From the NCBI GenBank assembly GCA_017592775.1, contig JAGFNJ010000005.1, forward strand, positions 62,246 to 126,245: a stretch of DNA of 64,000 nucleotides, in the 5' to 3' direction. Positions 15,983 to 22,915 of the stretch are shown piece by piece (position 1 is the stretch's first letter; each line of letters starts with the position of its first letter). Origin of the DNA: Candidatus Accumulibacter conexus (GTDB lineage: Bacteria; Pseudomonadota; Gammaproteobacteria; Burkholderiales; Rhodocyclaceae). The position numbers were made by a program, and so were the translations under genes. The notes below the pieces were generated by a model. The model worked only from the letters and a program-made list of their open reading frames with translations, did not search any database and was not told where the DNA came from.

Positions 15983-17431
15983 TCAGTACGATCCCGGGCT
16001 GGCAAAGCTCTCGAAACGCGTGTACTCGCCGAGGAAGGTCAGGCGCACGGTGCCGATCGGACCGTTGCGCTGCTTGCCGATGATGATCTCGGCGACGCCC
16101 TTTTCCGGTGTGTCCGGGTTGTAGACCTCGTCGCGGTAGATGAACATGATCACGTCGGCATCCTGCTCGATGGCTCCCGATTCGCGCAGGTCGGACATCA
16201 CCGGACGCTTGTTCGGCCGCTGTTCGAGCGAGCGATTGAGCTGCGACAGCGCCATCAGCGGCACGCCGAGTTCCTTCGCCAGACCCTTCAGCGAGCGCGA
16301 GATCTCGGAGATCTCGGTCGCCCGGTTCTCGCCATGCGAGGTCGCCGACATCAACTGCAGGTAGTCGATGACGATCAGCCCGAGCTGTCCGCACTGCCGG
16401 TAAAGGCGGCGGGCACGCGCCCGCAGGTCGATCGGATTCAGCGCCGGTGTCTCGTCGATGTAGATCGGCGCCTCGTGCATGCGGCCGAGGGCAAAGGACA
16501 GGCGCGACCATTCATCGTCGTTCAGGCGCCCGGTACGGACGCGGTGCGCGTCGAGACGACCGACCGAGCAGAGCATGCGCATCGCCAGTTGGGTGCCGCC
16601 CATCTCCATCGAGAAAATGGCCACCGGCAGCCCGACCTCGAGCGCCACATGCTCGGCAATGTTCATCGCGAACGAGGTCTTGCCCATCGACGGCCGGCCG
16701 GCGACGATCAGCAGATCGCCGCTCTGCAGGCCGGAGGTCTTGCCGTCGAGGTCGTGGTAACCGGTGGGCACACCGGTGATGTCGGACGGGTTGTCGCGAT
16801 CGTGCAGTTCCTGGATCCGCTCGACGACCTGCGTCAGCAGAGGATTGATATGGACGAAGCCGGTCTGGTGGCGAAAGCCGCCCTCGGCGATGGCAAACAC
16901 CTTCGCCTCGGCTTCGTCGAGCAGTGTTTTCGCGTCGCGGCCGAGCGGGTTGAGCGCGCTGCCGGCAATCTCGTCGCCGGCGGTGACCAGTTGGCGCAGG
17001 ATCGCGCGCTCGCGGACGATCTCGGCATAGCGGCGGATGTTTGCCGCCGACGGCGTGTTCGCCGCCAGTTCGCCGAGGTAGGCCAGGCCACCGGTCGCCT
17101 TGCCCTCGCCGGCCAGATCGAGGCTCTCGGCGACCGTTACCGCGTCGGCCGGCTTGCCACCTTCGAGCAGCTTGCGCATCTGGCGATAGATACGCCGGTG
17201 CTCGTCGCGGTAGAAATCGCCTTCGCCAACCAGGTCAGCGATGCGGTCGAAGGCCGCGTTGTCGAGCAACAGGCCGCCGAGGACCGATTGCTCGGCTTCC
17301 AGCGAATGGGGCGGCACACGCAGCTCGGACAGCACGGAGTCGGGCTGCGGGCCGCTCCCCCGCCGCGGGTTGCGCCCGGCCGGGCGGCGTTGCCCATCAT
17401 CGGGGCTGATTGGGTCGGACGAACTGGCCAT
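15983..17431 (-). CDS. dnaB: replicative DNA helicase
   Basis: 482-aa ORF. PPHSLEAEQSVLGGLL N-terminus, Walker A GRPSMGKTSF, IVIDYLQLM and SQLNRSLEQR motifs. Confidence 0.95.
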   Translation of the reverse strand: MASSSDPISPDDGQRRPAGRNPRRGSGPQPDSVLSELRVPPHSLEAEQSVLGGLLLDNAAFDRIADLVGEGDFYRDEHRRIYRQMRKLLEGGKPADAVTVAESLDLAGEGKATGGLAYLGELAANTPSAANIRRYAEIVRERAILRQLVTAGDEIAGSALNPLGRDAKTLLDEAEAKVFAIAEGGFRHQTGFVHINPLLTQVVERIQELHDRDNPSDITGVPTGYHDLDGKTSGLQSGDLLIVAGRPSMGKTSFAMNIAEHVALEVGLPVAIFSMEMGGTQLAMRMLCSVGRLDAHRVRTGRLNDDEWSRLSFALGRMHEAPIYIDETPALNPIDLRARARRLYRQCGQLGLIVIDYLQLMSATSHGENRATEISEISRSLKGLAKELGVPLMALSQLNRSLEQRPNKRPVMSDLRESGAIEQDADVIMFIYRDEVYNPDTPEKGVAEIIIGKQRNGPIGTVRLTFLGEYTRFESFASPGSY

Positions 17432-17497
17432 CGGGAATCCGCAACGAAAGGAAGGAGCAGGGCCACCAGTCTAGCGCGCTGGCGTGCGATCCAGTGC

Positions 17498-17533
17498 CCA
17501 AAAGCAGAAGAGCCTTGCCATCAGGCAAGGCTC
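17498..17533 (-). terminator. putative rho-independent terminator downstream of rplI
   Basis: A perfect 10-bp inverted repeat GAGCCTTGCC / GGCAAGGCTC (17510-17533) has a 4-nt loop. On the minus strand it is followed by TTCTGCTTTTGGG. Confidence 0.5.
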
Positions 17534-17570
17534 CTTGTCGACCAGAGGCAACCCAGCCTGCCGGACTGCC

Positions 17571-18029
17571 CTAGATCTTCGCCTGTTCGATGACCACGGC
17601 GACCGTGATCGTCGCCAGAACGTCGCCATGCAGCGCCACTTCCAGTTGTGTCTCGCCAATCGTCTTCAGTGGTCCGCCAGGCATGCGCACGGCCGACTTC
17701 TCGATGTCGAAGCCCTGTGCGCGCAGGCCGTCGGCAACGTCGAAATTGGTCACTGAACCAAACAGGCGACCATCGACACCAGCCTTGCGCGCGATGCGCA
17801 CGACGACACCCGCCAGTTTCTCGGCATAGGCCTGCGCATCGGCCAGCTTCGCCGCCGCCGCCTGCTCGAGTTCGGCCCGCTTCGCTTCGAACTCCTGCAG
17901 CGCCGCCGGCGTCGCGCGCCTGGCCTTGCCGGTCGGGATCAGGAAGTTGCGCGCGTAGCCGTCCTTCACCTTGAGCAGGTCACCGAGATTGCCGAGGTTG
18001 GCGACCTTCTCCATCAGAATGATTTGCAT
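17571..18029 (-). CDS. rplI: 50S ribosomal protein L9
   Basis: 152-aa [35 protein letters not shown]. Confidence 0.95.
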
Positions 18030-18043
18030 CGTCGTCTCCTCGC

Positions 18044-18319
18044 TTACTGGTGATTGTCGGTGTAGGGCAACAGCGCGAGGAAACGCGCGCGCTTGATCGC
18101 CACCGACAGCATCCGCTGATAGCCCGCCTTGGTGCCCGTCAGGCGGGCCGGCATGATCTTGGCGTTCTCGGCGATGTACTCCTTGAACAGATCGACATCC
18201 TTGTAGTCGATCTCTTCCATCTTCTCGGCAGTGAAGCGGCAGAACTTGCGCCGCTTGAAGAGACCACTACCCCGCTTCTTGACGTTCTTGTCATCCTTCT
18301 TCTTGAAGAACCTTGGCAT
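18044..18319 (-). CDS. rpsR: 30S ribosomal protein S18
   Basis: Motif [10 protein letters not shown]...[16 protein letters not shown] at 18319 is preceded by AAGGAAA (the ORF track opens at TTG 18337). Confidence 0.9.
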
Positions 18320-18701
18320 CTTGATTTCCTTCGACAAATTCGATCTTGGTTACATGCAGTCGCGGCTGCCTGCTGTGGCGGCTGCGCGCGGCGAGAAATC
18401 CGCTCAGCTGCAGCCGTGTCCCGGGACTCGCCGCCTGCAGCCAGTGTGCCGTATCGCCGAGGGCGATCGCCGGCACCTCACATTCGACGCGGCGGTTGCT
18501 GCCTGCCTCGAGCTGCTCCGACTGGTGACCGATCAGGCACTCCGTGACCGGCACTCCGGCCGGGGTGAAACGCAGCGCCTTGCGCTCGATCAGGACTCCG
18601 CTGAGCTCGACACGGTTCAGCAGCGCCGCCGACTCAGGCTGCTGGCTGCTCGCCGGCGGCAGCCGGGTCACGGACTTCCAGCAGCGACTTGGACTTCTCA
18701 T
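18291..18701 (-). CDS. priB: primosomal replication protein N (PriB)
   Basis: OB-fold PriB-like core [35 protein letters not shown]...RLHVTKIEF, in the conserved position between rpsF and rpsR. The start is uncertain. ATG 18701 and GTG 18671 both overlap the rpsF 3' end, and the conserved core begins around 18617. Confidence 0.7.
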
Positions 18702-19014
18702 CCTTCATCATCGGCGACGGCGCAGTGACCGCGCGCTTGGCCTTGATCGTCAGATGACGAAGAATCGCATCGTTGAACTTGAAGCCGTGCTCCAGTTCGG
18801 TCAGCGTCGCGCTGTCGCACTCGATGTTCAGCAGCAGGTAGTGGGCCTTGTGCAGCTTCTGGATCGGATAGGCGAGCTGGCGGCGACCCCAGTCCTCGAG
18901 GCGGTGGATCTGTCCGCCACGCGAGGCGATGAGCCCCTTGTAGCGCTCGACCATCGCCGGCACCTGCTCACTCTGGTCGGGATGGATGATCAGGACGATT
19001 TCGTAATGGCGCAT
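18634..19014 (-). CDS. rpsF: 30S ribosomal protein S6
   Basis: [26 protein letters not shown] begins at ATG 19014. The ORF-track extension to 19107 is treated as spurious. Confidence 0.93.
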
Positions 19015-19077
19015 GAACACTCCTTGTGGCTGAAGCCCCCCGCCATGCGAGCGGTGGAGCAAGGTGAAAAGCCGGCG

Positions 19078-19107
19078 ATTATAGCGCTGCTGCGGCTTCA
19101 CGGGCAA
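19078..19107 (-). promoter_or_regulatory. putative sigma70 promoter of the rpsF-priB-rpsR-rplI operon
   Basis: The minus strand reads TTGCCC-(18 nt)-TATAAT. The -35 lies at 19102-19107 and the -10 at 19078-19083, about 64 nt upstream of the rpsF ATG. Confidence 0.4.
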
Positions 19108-19237: not shown

Positions 19238-19960
19238 CTAAGCCAGCCTCGCCTCCAGCTTGCGCAGCGATGCGCGAACGGTGGCAGCCCTCGCGTCCCC
19301 AACCTCGTCGAGTTTGTCGCAGATCGCCCGCAGAACCTCGAGCGTCGCGTTCGGCGCACTGCTGCCAGCCTTGTCGACGAAGGCGCGGTAGGCTCGCTCG
19401 GCGCCCGGTACGTCCACTCCAAGCAATGCGCGGCAGTCGCCGAGGTCGGCCCACGCCCAGCCGCTGTCGCTGAGTTCCTGCTGTTCCGCCAAGTGCTTGG
19501 TGAGCAGCTTTTCCAGCGTTTCGATGTCCGTGGCAAGGTCGTCGAGGGAGCTCGCGCCCGAGAGCAGGGCCAACTTCACGGCGTTGACCCGATTGTACGT
19601 GCTCTGGTGAACGAAGCTCTCCTCCAACTCCGCGCCCTTGCGGTAGCTGTCGAGAGCGGCACGCGAATCGCCAAGGCGACGCAACATTCCCCCGCGACTG
19701 CCGTAGGCTTCGACGAGTTCGCGCGCGATCGCGGCCACCTCCGGGGTCGGATCCCCGGCGGGCACACGCTGCTCGCGGGGCCACTCGGGAAGGGCAAGCA
19801 GGAACCTGATGATCTCGTCCAATACACCCGCGCCGGCACGGAATTCGGCCACCGCTCTGCTCGCGTCGCCTGCCCTGCCAAACGCCTCGCCGCGCTTGCG
19901 CAGGAGCTTCGCCTGGCGATGCCTCTCGGCCACCTCATCCTGCCAGCGGCTCGCCGTCAT
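19238..19960 (-). CDS. all-helical TPR/DUF4071-like protein, last gene of the caspase operon
   Basis: 240-aa ORF. Its ATG overlaps the stop codon of the upstream caspase gene (ATGA overlap at 19957-19960). It shares motif order with the helical region of the 22916-24928 protein: SYRKGAEL..STYNRVNAVKLALL...GWAWADLGDCRALL versus PYHRAFVA..HYSGINALTLLLL...DYWARASHAEACLLL. Confidence 0.6.
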   Translation of the reverse strand: MTASRWQDEVAERHRQAKLLRKRGEAFGRAGDASRAVAEFRAGAGVLDEIIRFLLALPEWPREQRVPAGDPTPEVAAIARELVEAYGSRGGMLRRLGDSRAALDSYRKGAELEESFVHQSTYNRVNAVKLALLSGASSLDDLATDIETLEKLLTKHLAEQQELSDSGWAWADLGDCRALLGVDVPGAERAYRAFVDKAGSSAPNATLEVLRAICDKLDEVGDARAATVRASLRKLEARLA

Positions 19961-22245
19961 GGTGCGTCTCCTTTCAGCCTCTTGAGGATCGTCTCTGCCA
20001 GGGCGAAGTCTTCCGCCACATCGCTGTCGTACAGCGCTGCCGCAACGTCCTCGCCGAGCTTCTGGTGAAGCGCTTTCGCCGCCTCGGGAAACCCGCGCGG
20101 TTTGACCCGGTACTCAAGATAGAGCCAGGCCGCGATGCGCTGCTCCACCGCCGCGCGTTCAGCATCGCGTTTGATCGGCCTGCTGGCAGCGAACAACGTC
20201 TGCGTTGCCTCGACCCGATCCTTCTCGGTGCTGCTCAACGACTCGGCGGAGCGATCCAGCAGATCGTGCACCTCAGGATAGGCGACGCTGACCGGCTCGA
20301 TCGCTTCGCGGACGACCTGATGCACCCAGTTGTAGCTCGGATCGAGTTCGTCGAACGGCCTTCTCTTCACCAGTGCGTCGGCCAAGTCGTCGAAGGTTCT
20401 TGCGGCGCCCTTCTGGTATCGGCGGGGCTCGAGTTGGGCGTTCATCAGCGCCACCTGCTGGAGCTCGGGTCCCGACTGGCCGTCTGCTCTCCGGACGCGA
20501 GCCGCCAAGTCCGCCCCGGGCAGGTAGCGTTCATCGACGATCTGCAGCGCGCCCCAAGGGCTCACCGCGAGCCGGACTCCGAGTTCGAGGAACGAGGACG
20601 GACTGAAGAGGCTCCAGTCCATGACGCATCCGGCTACCCGGCGGATGTGCTCGTACAGTGCCTGCGAAACGAGCTGCGATGACCCCAGGTCGATCAGGCG
20701 ACGGACACGGGGCTGGCGCACCCCCCGCTGCTGGAGAGCCTTTTCCAGCCCGCGGCGCACGTATAGCCATGCTTCCCGATGTTCAGGACGAAAGGAGCAC
20801 AGTGCGAGCACCAGTCGATCCAACGGAATCGTGCCCCACGACTCGACATCGGAGCCGAGCTGGCGCAGCGAATCGTACGCTGGCAGGTCGAGGTAGCGCG
20901 GCTGCAGCAGGAGCTGATCAAAACCCCTCGCCGTACCCTCGATGAAGCGACGGACAACGGGGTCCTCGGCCACAGTCGTCTCGGTCTCACTGTGCGAGAA
21001 GACCTGCAGATCGCTCAGGTTGAACGGCGTCTCCAACTGGCGGCCTTCGCGCCAGCCGTAGCCGTGGCTGCACAGGGTCACTCCGCGCCGGGTCGCCGCG
21101 CGGATGCCGAGCAGGAACATCACGCCCGGCTCGAAGCGCGTCAGATCGAAAAAGGCCAGGTCGGCCTGGACGACGGCCCGGATCGTGTTCTTGAGTGAGG
21201 ATCGGTTCCTGAAGGCGTCGTGAACGCGAAAGACCACGGTCGTGACGCATCCGGCATCGAAGTCCTCCGGCAAGTCCCGACGGGTTCCAGCCACCGACGA
21301 CCGACCCAGCCAAGAGCGGCGGAAGCGCTGCCAGACGCTATCGCCGGCCTGCAGGAACACGTCATTCACCTTCTCACGCAATGGATCGTCGGATGAGAAG
21401 CCCGCATGCTCGGACTCGACGACGAGGCAGTGCAGCCGCCGCGGATCGAAGTTCTCCCAGAGCGCGCCGTCGGACGATCCGGCGGCCATCGCGGTCCGCC
21501 GGAAGATCGGCTGACGACTGAGCTGTTCCAGAGTGTCCGTGTTGATATCGCCCATGCTGCCAATCGAAGGTCTTTGCGGCGGGAGCCGGGGAAGGGCCGC
21601 TGCCGCGATCTCTTCGCATTGGCCGCCCGTCGCGTTCAGTACCTCCTGGAGCGTTTCGTTGCGGGAGTCCGGGGCGAGGGCTCGCGCCAGTGCAGCCGTA
21701 AAAACGCTGACATCCTTGCCATCACTGCCGCATCGCCAGACGTGGCAAAGCTCTTTCTCTGCGCAGCCGAAGATGCGGATGAAGTTCTTGTCCGGAAATG
21801 CCTGACTGCCCTTTGTCCACGGTCGCCCCCCTTTCTCCGTCCCGTGGTCGCAATCGTCGCGGCACGCATCGATGATGAAGATCACCAGCGCGTCCGGATC
21901 CACGACCGAGGGACTCAGGTCGGTCGAAACGCGGTGCGTGGCGCTGCGAGCTGCCTCAGCACGGCTGACGCCGGCGGGGAGGATCCATTCCTGGCCATCA
22001 ATCGAGACGCCGTGGCCGCTGAAGTAGACAATGCCGACGTCGCTGGTCACCTTCGCGCAGAAATCGCTGATCGCACTTTCGAGCAGGCTGGCATTCCTCA
22101 CCGTGTCGGCCGACACGACTTCGACCGCGAACCCACATGTCGTCAGCGTCCGCTTCATGAGCAGGACATCCTGCTCAGCGGCGGGGAGATTCGTGAAGCC
22201 GTCCCCGTACTCGGCAGCACCGATCAGCAGTGCGCGTCTCGCCAC
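19957..22245 (-). CDS. caspase (peptidase C14)-like domain protein with a central TIR/deoxyribosyltransferase-like module
   Basis: 762-aa ORF. The N-terminus ALLIGAAEYG...VYFSGHGV (His, about aa 78) ...FIIDACRDD (Cys, about aa 128) is a caspase His/Cys dyad pattern. The central ADLAFFDLTRFEPGVMFLLGIRAATRRGVTL resembles the N-terminal module of the 22916-24928 protein. GTG start lies 1 nt after the stop of the upstream small ORF. Confidence 0.8.
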   Translation of the reverse strand: MARRALLIGAAEYGDGFTNLPAAEQDVLLMKRTLTTCGFAVEVVSADTVRNASLLESAISDFCAKVTSDVGIVYFSGHGVSIDGQEWILPAGVSRAEAARSATHRVSTDLSPSVVDPDALVIFIIDACRDDCDHGTEKGGRPWTKGSQAFPDKNFIRIFGCAEKELCHVWRCGSDGKDVSVFTAALARALAPDSRNETLQEVLNATGGQCEEIAAAALPRLPPQRPSIGSMGDINTDTLEQLSRQPIFRRTAMAAGSSDGALWENFDPRRLHCLVVESEHAGFSSDDPLREKVNDVFLQAGDSVWQRFRRSWLGRSSVAGTRRDLPEDFDAGCVTTVVFRVHDAFRNRSSLKNTIRAVVQADLAFFDLTRFEPGVMFLLGIRAATRRGVTLCSHGYGWREGRQLETPFNLSDLQVFSHSETETTVAEDPVVRRFIEGTARGFDQLLLQPRYLDLPAYDSLRQLGSDVESWGTIPLDRLVLALCSFRPEHREAWLYVRRGLEKALQQRGVRQPRVRRLIDLGSSQLVSQALYEHIRRVAGCVMDWSLFSPSSFLELGVRLAVSPWGALQIVDERYLPGADLAARVRRADGQSGPELQQVALMNAQLEPRRYQKGAARTFDDLADALVKRRPFDELDPSYNWVHQVVREAIEPVSVAYPEVHDLLDRSAESLSSTEKDRVEATQTLFAASRPIKRDAERAAVEQRIAAWLYLEYRVKPRGFPEAAKALHQKLGEDVAAALYDSDVAEDFALAETILKRLKGDAP

Positions 22246-22246
22246 A

Positions 22247-22531
22247 CTACGGCTTCTTGAACTTCAGCGTGATCGAACCCGAGCCGCTGACTGTGGCTGT
22301 CCCGATGAACTGCACACCGCCTTCGGCGGTGATCTCGACACCGACCTCGACCTCCGAAAGCTCGTAGTTGCCGACCTGCCGAACGTCGCTGAAGACCTCG
22401 GCGAGCAACGCCGTCGCCGACTGCAGGTTTGCGCGCATCGTCGCAACCGGAATCGCGGCAACGCCGACCGCCCTGCCGCCCTTCGCCGGGATCTGCACCA
22501 GAATCGGAAGCGTTTCCTGGTCCGTGCTCAT
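22247..22531 (-). CDS. small beta-rich protein resembling peptidase-co-occurring (trypco2/Pepco-type) partners
   Basis: 94-aa product from ATG 22531, preceded by GGAGGAG. The C-terminal YELSEVEVGVEITAEGGVQFIGTATVSGSGSITLKFKKP matches my memory of the small proteins encoded next to trypsin/caspase peptidases in conflict systems. The longer ORF-track frame to 22855 is treated as spurious. Confidence 0.55.
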   Translation of the reverse strand: MSTDQETLPILVQIPAKGGRAVGVAAIPVATMRANLQSATALLAEVFSDVRQVGNYELSEVEVGVEITAEGGVQFIGTATVSGSGSITLKFKKP

Positions 22532-22915
22532 CTGCTCCTCCCTTCGTCGTTGCGGCGAGGAAACGTCGCCGACCTTCCCATCGTCTCGGCCTTCGCGTCG
22601 GCACATTGGTCCGTTCCTCGCTCTCAGGTCAGCAAATTCATCGACCGCGTCGCCGACCCCGCCCGCAACCGCCCATTTTTCGGCAACCAAGCTGCTCGAC
22701 GACTGGCGCGACGGCGACGCCTGCACCAAGAATGCACGAGCACGAGAAATCCAACGGCAACGACCCAAGTATATGAGCTTGCTTGAAGCAGCGTCAATCT
22801 CACGACAATCGCCTGGATGCGGCGGCCTGCAAGCATGGGCGAGATCTCGCGACACGGCAATTCGGCGGCAGGCGTCTCCTCATGCAGCGACCATGGCAGA
22901 CACGGCAAGCGGGCG

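Follow-up and report, generated by a model that had tools for sequence, protein, structure and literature searches.

In a 64,000-nucleotide stretch of the genome of Candidatus Accumulibacter conexus (GenBank assembly GCA_017592775.1, contig JAGFNJ010000005.1, positions 62,246 to 126,245; hereafter the window), three consecutive minus-strand genes encode a 94-aa protein of the Pepco family, a 762-aa protein in which a caspase domain is followed by a C-terminal module of ~500 aa, and a 240-aa tetratricopeptide repeat (TPR) protein. By analogy with protease-effector pairs described in other bacteria, we consider it probable that these three genes form a self-sufficient protease-effector cassette serving abortive infection or programmed death. 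The genes are conserved, the module is paired with the TPR protein, the catalytic dyad of the caspase is intact, and both heads and effectors have been swapped on a constant core.

In the mechanism that we propose, the sensor would consist of two chains, namely the ~500-aa C-terminal module and the co-translated TPR protein. Detection of a cue, which could be a phage protein or a nucleotide-type ligand, would render the caspase domains (His78/Cys128) active, probably by oligomerization, and the active caspase would then cleave the Pepco protein encoded just upstream. The cleaved Pepco, a putative beta-rich oligomeric pro-toxin, would form a membrane-permeabilizing pore, with cell death or arrest as the outcome. 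The roles of Pepco as a pore toxin and as a caspase substrate, as well as the response to infection, are proposed by analogy to Trypco2/SsAvs4 and to LcCaspase (see below).

Gene layout and caspase domain

The three open reading frames (ORFs) are tightly packed. A single spacer base (T22246) separates the Pepco stop codon from the GTG start of the 762-aa gene, and the ATG of the 240-aa gene lies inside the stop of the caspase gene (ATGA, 19960-19957). Rereading of the coordinates from the sequence thereby confirmed the arrangement given in the original prediction, i.e. a 1-nt gap followed by an ATGA overlap with all genes on the minus strand, while the upstream non-coding gap (22532-22915) was found to be 384 nt long and not 385 nt as had been stated. 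Judging from homologues of like length and start, all three ORFs are real genes and not chance frames. A word-indexed search returned 171 homologues of the 762-aa protein at E<=1e-5, with >170 of equal length, and 63 homologues were found for the 240-aa protein. For the 94-aa protein there are 15 close homologues with the same start. A longer start for the small ORF (in-frame GTG at 22855, 202-aa extension) was discarded because the homologues begin at the same Met, a Shine-Dalgarno sequence precedes this Met, and the DNA upstream of it shows no coding conservation. Nothing relevant came out of Rfam, tRNA and repeat scans of the region, and its base composition is without a foreign-DNA signature.

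The N-terminal part of the large protein had been predicted to be a caspase, and by sequence it is one that looks active, with a Peptidase_C14 match well above the Pfam cut-off (Table 1) and an intact His-Cys dyad. The two catalytic motifs, GHG (H78) and DACR (C128), are invariant in 100 out of 100 caspase-type homologues. In a profile search of the PDB sequences, the caspase part retrieved MALT1 paracaspase and metacaspase-4. The NCBIfam model for EACC1-associated caspases (NF047832) scored 52.1 bits, below its cut-off of 140, and no EACC1 gene adjoins the locus.

Conservation of the trio and exchange of its parts

Homologous loci were collected by contig look-ups and by a scan of 185,579 species genomes, the latter giving 38 loci from many bacterial phyla; the ~50 loci in all were annotated using HMMs (hidden Markov models) built for this analysis. 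The trio was found at 79% identity to the window in L050, 74% in L001, 56% in L051, 53% in L052 and 37% in L004 (Roseibium), and it also occurs in L011 (Cyanobium) and L020 (Myxococcaceae). Its conservation across unrelated genomic contexts and phyla thus marks it as a self-contained cassette. The original prediction had been made dependent on the small ORF being kept upstream of homologous caspase genes; among the closer homologues this is the case in L001, L004, L011, L020, L036 and L049-L052, and the loci with an upstream Pepco gene include Bryobacterales.

The module is constant, while a range of N-terminal heads is attached to it. The caspase is the commonest of these, and the others are Trypsin_2, TIR_2 together with Trypsin_2, CHAT, a FAD/NAD-oxidoreductase-like head, and heads that could not be assigned. 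The genes accompanying the core vary as well: Trypco1 goes with the trypsin-headed (Trypsin_2) versions, and an alpha/beta hydrolase of the DUF900 family (PF05990) is encoded downstream of the caspase version in 12 of the 38 genome loci. In sister loci, then, Trypco1, a DUF900 hydrolase or a fused TIR takes the place of Pepco, as would fit an exchangeable effector or substrate.

Certain variants of the locus were found on the way. The DUF900 hydrolases that replace Pepco in L002/L017 (9012-10259) and L009/L021 (7989-9248) are ~415 aa long, and may represent a second class of caspase-activated hydrolase effector, with no characterized member. A FAD/NAD(P)-binding oxidoreductase-like head takes the place of the protease in L035 (2420-5347) and L044 (325-2865), and the core is therefore not limited to protease outputs. 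TIR_2 precedes Trypsin_2 on the module in L008 (3911-6523) and in the proteins P0108, P0109, P0113, P0114 and P0118; in L008, the single locus of this kind examined, the TPR partner is kept and an upstream ORF resembling Pepco or Trypco was not found. Splits or frameshifts affect the module gene in L024 (3305-5559), L036 (3227-7660, where it is interrupted by ~1-kb stretches) and L046 (1943-4190), and these copies are probably decaying or insertion-disrupted.

The putative sensor module and its TPR partner

Residues 207-762 of the large protein had no match in Pfam, NCBIfam, PADLOC or PDB sequence models, and when profiles of the whole protein and of its two alpha/beta domains (domains 1 and 2, Table 1) were run against all PDB sequences, the caspase part alone was matched. 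The module family is of modest size yet diverse, with 465 cluster representatives at E<=1e-3 among 1.84 billion clusters. Residues 226-762 were modeled by AlphaFold2 (AF2) from an alignment with 73 homologues, and the confident model (pLDDT 89, pTM 0.87) shows two alpha/beta flavodoxin-like domains followed by six helices. D543, W544, E554 (codon 20586-20584) and R558 are invariant in domain 2, and the motif of domain 1 differs in having Leu where domain 2 has Glu (E554). The two domains could be aligned to each other by hhalign with a probability of 40% over a 23-column motif only; as far as can be judged from this, an origin by internal duplication is plausible.

The 762-aa protein lacks a Walker A motif (G/AxxxxGK[ST]) and has no NTPase match in Pfam. 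A STAND/Avs-type identity of the module was discarded because of the absent Walker A motif. The logic is the same as in the NLR-like Avs/STAND proteins, in which the N-terminal head (effector or protease) varies and the C-terminal sensor, with TPR-like repeats, stays constant, but where these have a P-loop NTPase the trio sensor is predicted to have two flavodoxin-like domains.

Foldseek comparisons with the PDB gave E-values of 0.08-0.2 and TMt values of 0.47-0.60, in an output that is silent on which of the two domains aligned. The best single-domain matches were DNPH1 (probability 0.91, TMt 0.57-0.60) and the CMP N-glycosidase MilB (0.89), followed by Leishmania NDT (0.85) and the TRAM TIR domain (0.54), while the domain pair as a whole resembles two-Rossmann GT-B enzymes and epimerases. 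With hhalign, E554 falls in register with the catalytic Glu in the YELG of human DNPH1, at a probability of <2% for either domain, and no phosphate-binding loop like that of DNPH1 can be recognized in the module sequence. As the hhalign register is without statistical support and the sequence comparisons are not significant, we do not assign the domains to the DNPH1/NDT family. The TIR models of Pfam and PADLOC likewise gave no match to the 762-aa protein. Of the internal TIR/deoxyribosyltransferase-like segment in the original prediction, a likeness thus holds at the level of the modeled fold only, for two domains and not one.

The third protein had been described as helical; it is, more specifically, a TPR protein. 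Among its homologues, 42 out of 56 match Pfam TPR_2 (the window copy weakly, E 0.006), its AF2 model (pLDDT 94.9) has 11 helices, and Foldseek aligned this model to TPR solenoids (CTPR, LGN, OGT and MamA) at probability 1.0. The thresholds of Pfam TPR-S and MAP3K_TRAF_bd were not reached by the window protein, and TPR-S was found in 2 of the 56 homologues. Module and TPR protein co-occur in every complete locus examined. Their genes share a 4-nt stop/start overlap (ATGA or GTGA) in 14 non-duplicate loci and lie a few nucleotides apart in most others, and in ~10 loci the two are joined in one protein, with the TPR part at the C-terminus, an arrangement also seen in 14 of 120 database homologues, one of them trypsin-headed. 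These fusions and overlaps are strong sequence-based evidence that the module and the TPR protein form an obligate physical two-chain unit.

A relative of this unit is encoded directly upstream of the trio in the window, in the form of a 670-aa TPR-S protein with a TIR-like N-domain (PADLOC TIR model, E 1.6e-6; Pfam TIR_2, weak). Compared by hhalign with this N-domain, domain 1 gave a probability of 66% (E 5.5e-5) and domain 2 one of 72% (E 3.5e-5), and the motif D(L/W)(T/S)...P....ELG.R is common to the module domains and the neighbor's N-domain. The TPR partner family in turn aligns to the TPR-S region of the neighbor family (93%, E 3e-7), and with a profile that includes the natural fusions the similarity extends colinearly from domain 2 through the TPR (94%, E 1e-7). 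The neighbor is hence remotely homologous, and colinear, to domain 2 and the TPR partner taken together, and the trio sensor is plausibly related to the "TIR-like + TPR-S" architecture as an elaborated and split form: what is one chain there has, in the trio, a duplicated alpha/beta domain, extra helices, a separate TPR chain and a protease head. Going by the naming of PF13281 (MAP3K_TRAF_bd/DUF4071) after ASK-type kinases, this Pfam family and PF20308 (TPR-S) would represent the N-terminal regulatory architecture of ASK1/MAP3K5-type kinases. DUF4071 has been used for Ask1 (PMC6363233). The sensor architecture was found undescribed in Pfam, in PADLOC and in the literature searched (DRHyd, TPR-S, DUF4071 and the Pfam accessions). 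A sensor of tandem flavodoxin-like domains and a TPR partner is thus uncatalogued, the Pepco-caspase logic itself being already known.

The fold-level likeness also opens for an unlikely alternative, in which the effector would be the constant DNPH1/NDT/TIR-like module, acting as an enzyme, e.g. as an N-glycosidase of nucleotides or NAD+ through which a metabolite is depleted or a signal produced. Protease and Pepco would then serve in processing, in regulation or as a second kill mechanism. Topologically, the invariant E554 does correspond to the catalytic Glu of DNPH1/NDT, D, W, R, Y and S residues of domain 2 are likewise invariant, and the Foldseek matches include N-glycosidases, but the Glu is lost in domain 1 and neither the phosphate loop nor significant sequence similarity accompanies it. 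In conflict systems, TIR and DRHyd domains are described as effectors or as generators of signals (PMC7159879); in comparable systems, however, it is the variable N-terminal heads that act as effectors on a constant sensor (Evans et al., 10.1101/2025.11.14.688446), and the module is here accompanied by dedicated effector genes, i.e. Pepco and DUF900. One locus adjoining NAD-salvage genes would agree with an enzymatic module.

This locus is L051 (1084-5517), on a metagenome contig where the trio lies directly beside NAD biosynthesis and salvage genes, namely those for an NMNAT-like protein, NAD synthase, a nicotinamidase-like protein and NAPRTase. The proximity may be a coincidence, or may have a bearing on nucleotide/NAD sensing.

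The Pepco protein and its characterized relatives

The assignment of the small protein to the peptidase-partner proteins, until now a suggestion from its beta-rich C-terminus, was borne out by profile searches. It matches Pfam Pepco (PF24393) at E 2e-18 and 67.3 bits against a curated cut-off of 27, over profile positions 38-112 only, and Trypco1 (PF19493) at E 1.9e-6 and 28.8 bits against 24.6; it also passes the NCBIfam model CU044_2847_fam. In an alignment of its clade (n=18), V12, K17, G18, A39, L43, V53, G54, L58, E60, E66, E70, G71, G72, G83, I87, L89 and F91 are invariant. The window protein ends in ...SGSGSITLKF-KKP, so that KKP alone (3 residues) extends beyond the last beta strand, and the tails after F91 in the clade are 3-15 aa long. 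At the other end there is an N-terminal extension of ~28 aa, which includes the invariant K17-G18.

Trypco1 and Trypco2 were defined as trypsin-co-occurring proteins in a study that also noted a pairing of caspase and alpha/beta hydrolase (Kaur et al. 2020, PMC7159879). SsPepco exists as a beta-barrel (9-10-mer) assembled in advance, which becomes toxic once the neighboring protease SsAvs4 cuts off its 20-aa C-terminal tail after Ile97, while LcCaspase cuts a neighboring hydrolase between R and G, and modules of this protease-effector kind are recombined with numerous sensors (Evans et al. 2025, bioRxiv 10.1101/2025.11.14.688446). The general features of these modules, namely a sensor-fused protease, a dedicated effector encoded next to it and a module that recombines with other parts, are all found in the trio family. 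The likeness to SsPepco-SsAvs4 lies in a ~100-aa beta-rich protein encoded directly upstream of a sensor-fused protease, and in an effector that is exchangeable between sensors; SsAvs4, however, is a trypsin-like STAND protease, whereas the window has a caspase without an NTPase. LcCaspase has a related caspase domain (E 4e-18) with the same GHG/DACR dyad, but lacks the sensor module, and the effector in the window is Pepco and not a hydrolase. Membership of LcCaspase/LcHydrolase in the window family was accordingly rejected, as the caspase domain alone is shared and the DUF900 HMM does not detect LcHydrolase.

Bacterial gasdermins offer a parallel from outside the family (Pepco is unrelated to gasdermin), with a caspase-like protease gene located beside a latent pore-former that is freed by proteolysis. 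A gasdermin monomer assembles after cleavage, whereas SsPepco, the tested case, is a barrel assembled beforehand. By the analogy to SsPepco, the window Pepco is predicted to be a protease-activated beta-barrel pro-toxin. Candidate cleavage sites are the invariant K17-G18, which may be compared with the R-G site of LcCaspase, and the short tail after F91. Ile87 is invariant in the clade, and its equivalence to I97 of SsPepco could not be established. A hydrophobic-moment test of the Pepco helix and strands against shuffles gave no discrimination, even for SsPepco itself.

The tight coupling of the genes had originally been taken to imply one stoichiometric complex of all three products. Pepco would then be a cofactor, inhibitor or chaperone of the caspase, and not its substrate or a toxin, which we regard as distinctly unlikely. 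The 1-nt and 4-nt junctions of the window are tight indeed, but the distance between the Pepco and caspase genes varies among the loci, from an overlap of 4 nt to a gap of 100 nt, and Pepco was never seen fused to the protease in the loci examined, unlike the TPR protein, which often is fused. Pepco also lacks a long removable tail like that of SsPepco, as would suit a bound subunit; yet many homologues do without Pepco altogether and have a DUF900 hydrolase or a fused TIR instead. On the same sensor, Pepco (PF24393) goes with the caspase and Trypco1 with trypsin, which could reflect a binding interface, but such co-variation with the protease type is equally expected of a substrate. Moreover, the one experimentally studied relative is a cleaved pore toxin and not a protease cofactor (10.1101/2025.11.14.688446). 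What stands of the original proposal is thus the pairing of module and TPR protein, as evidenced by the fusions, while Pepco, for which Trypco1, a DUF900 hydrolase or a fused TIR can stand in, is more probably an exchangeable substrate or toxin than a stoichiometric subunit.

Probable promoter and genomic neighborhood

A consensus scan of the 384-nt gap identified a sigma-70-like site (TTGACG-18-TATACT, 22797-22768) ~237 nt upstream of the Pepco ATG, matching the consensus at 10 out of 12 positions; 2 sites were seen, against 0.4 expected in shuffles. In comparison with the 79%-identical locus L050, this site is the best-conserved block of an otherwise diverged and indel-rich intergenic region. 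The 5' untranslated (5'UTR) block directly before the Pepco ATG is also conserved, and the rest of the gap poorly so. The conservation of both blocks supports the earlier suggestion that the trio probably has a promoter of its own.

Table 1. Features of the trio and of its neighborhood (nucleotide positions in the window).
Feature	Positions	Strand	Basis and remarks
Pepco ORF, 94 aa	22247..22531 (ATG 22531 to TAG 22249-22247)	minus	read from sequence
Caspase-sensor fusion ORF, 762 aa	19957..22245 (GTG 22245 to TGA 19959-19957)	minus	read from sequence
TPR partner ORF, 240 aa	19238..19960 (ATG 19960 to 19238)	minus	read from sequence
Caspase domain (Peptidase_C14), aa 3-206	21628..22239	minus	Pfam PF00656, E 1e-19, 71.5 bits vs 21.4
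Catalytic His78 codon	22014-22012	minus	in GHG motif
Catalytic Cys128 codon	21864-21862	minus	in DACR motif
Alpha/beta domain 1, aa ~271-447	20905..21435	minus	AF2 model; motif ADLAFFDLTRFEPGVMFLLGIRAA
Alpha/beta domain 2, aa ~479-627	20365..20811	minus	AF2 model; motif CVMDWSLFSPSSFLELGVRLAVS
C-terminal helical region, aa ~637-758	19972..20337	minus	AF2 model, six helices; no family match
Shine-Dalgarno-like sequence AAGGGAGGAG	22535..22544	minus	sequence reading; 3 nt upstream of the Pepco ATG
Promoter-like site	22768..22797	minus	consensus scan, sigma-70-like; -35 TTGACG, 18-nt spacer, -10 TATACT
TPR-S protein, 670 aa	22916-24928	minus	Pfam TPR-S / MAP3K_TRAF_bd; TIR-like N-domain; ~200-aa C-terminal region without family match
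DUF7379-CHAT protein, 2008 aa	24943-30969	minus	DUF7379 (three stretches), LCAT-like alpha/beta hydrolase region, CHAT peptidase, TPR; weak PADLOC BovA
Stand-alone caspase, 280 aa	31067-31909	minus	Peptidase_C14, E 2e-21; upstream of the CHAT gene
rpsF-priB-rpsR-rplI-dnaB	15983-19107	minus	abuts the trio

Together with the caspase of the trio, the stand-alone caspase and the CHAT protein make three caspase-fold peptidases on one strand of this island. The order stand-alone caspase, CHAT, TPR-S, Pepco, caspase, TPR and rpsF to dnaB recurs in L049 and L050, which are sludge/bioreactor metagenome contigs, and suggests a stable chromosomal island in the lineage of the window, L049 and L050. Beyond the window, the six-gene order was found only in the 79%-identical relative, which also has the rpsF-dnaB flank. 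The 2008-aa DUF7379-CHAT protein is probably a separate conflict-system giant protein.

That the trio is merely one part of a six-gene system, with the TPR-S protein, the 2008-aa protein and the 280-aa caspase perhaps adding up to a protease cascade, is very unlikely. All six genes are on one strand and have the same order in L050, but L049 and L050 are close relatives with the ribosomal flank also in common, and the shared order is thus explained by descent. A TPR-S gene adjoins the trio in L001 (in another order), TPR-S-like proteins are encoded near the core in L042, L045 and L048, and the TPR-S protein is, as described above, a remote homologue of the trio sensor; the trio nevertheless stands alone in L004, L051, L052, L011 and L020, and in the window it is set apart from the TPR-S gene by the 384-nt gap, in which the conserved promoter-like site is located.

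Weighing of the proposed cassette

Several observations speak against the trio being a cassette of the proposed kind. SsPepco belongs to Trypco2 (PF19631, E 5e-18) and has no Pepco or Trypco1 match, whereas the window protein belongs to Pepco PF24393/Trypco1, and the HMM of the window clade did not detect SsPepco (E 0.08). Where SsPepco has a charged, proline-rich 20-aa tail after I97, the window Pepco has three residues after its last strand, and in the absence of a long C-terminal tail the SsPepco mechanism is therefore not transferable as it is. The DNPH1/NDT/TIR-like label of the module is at fold level only, with Foldseek E-values of 0.08-0.2 and HMM and hhalign comparisons to the PDB and to DNPH1 that are not significant. 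None of the PADLOC models matched any of the trio proteins. The trio adjoins the housekeeping genes rpsF to dnaB, mobile-element genes were not identified in the flanks that were examined, and the terminator-like site sought after the TPR gene was not found, so that read-through toward rpsF is possible.

It is nonetheless very improbable that the cassette is not anti-phage but a stress-, development- or kin-selection-related proteolysis or cell-death module, as could be argued from the PADLOC result, the chromosomal site beside core genes, the link of caspase/trypsin systems to multicellular or social bacteria (Kaur et al., PMC7159879) and the stress sensing raised for EACC1-DnaK fusions (Evans et al., 10.1101/2025.11.14.688446), given that the distribution over phyla is patchy, that sister loci have integrases with RepSA, a TrwC relaxase, transposases, MazE/PIN toxin-antitoxin genes and TIR genes as neighbors, and that effector shuffling is typical of defense systems.

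A more specific version of the protease-effector cassette, which we regard as doubtful when taken as a whole, would make the tandem DNPH1/MilB/NDT-like domains and the TPR protein an NTPase-free small-molecule immune sensor of ASK1-like architecture, with a nucleotide switching the caspase and the tail-less Pepco being activated by a route other than that of SsPepco. Domain 2 (E554, D543, W544, R558) would here bind or hydrolyze an infection-derived nucleotide, the candidates being a phage-type hydroxymethylated or otherwise modified (d)NMP, or a NAD-derived signal. Modified (d)NMPs, e.g. hydroxymethylated ones, are the natural substrates of DNPH1 and MilB. Pepco would be activated by e.g. loss of its N-terminal 17 residues between K17 and G18, and TIR/NDT-like domains combined with TPR would correspond, in bacteria, to the regulatory region at the N-terminus of ASK1-type kinases in animals.

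Implications

Protease-activated toxins, such as Pepco, EACC1, MBL, hydrolases and gasdermins, are emerging as a principal logic of bacterial immunity, the sensors of which are mostly uncharacterized. The locus described here represents a compact, NTPase-free family of putative sensors, with ~465 protein clusters from many phyla, in which one sensor core is combined with at least three protease types (caspase, trypsin and CHAT) and several effectors (Pepco, Trypco1, DUF900 hydrolase and TIR). The trio is consequently a tractable three-gene cassette for learning what such a sensor recognizes, and it provides a natural test of whether the tail-less Pepco and Trypco1 proteins are activated differently from the single characterized Trypco2. 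Lastly, the sensor is a possible prokaryotic relative of the ASK1-type module that controls cell-death signaling in animals, and the importance of the family would be greater still should the sensor turn out to respond to a nucleotide signal, or tail-less Pepco to follow a new route of activation.

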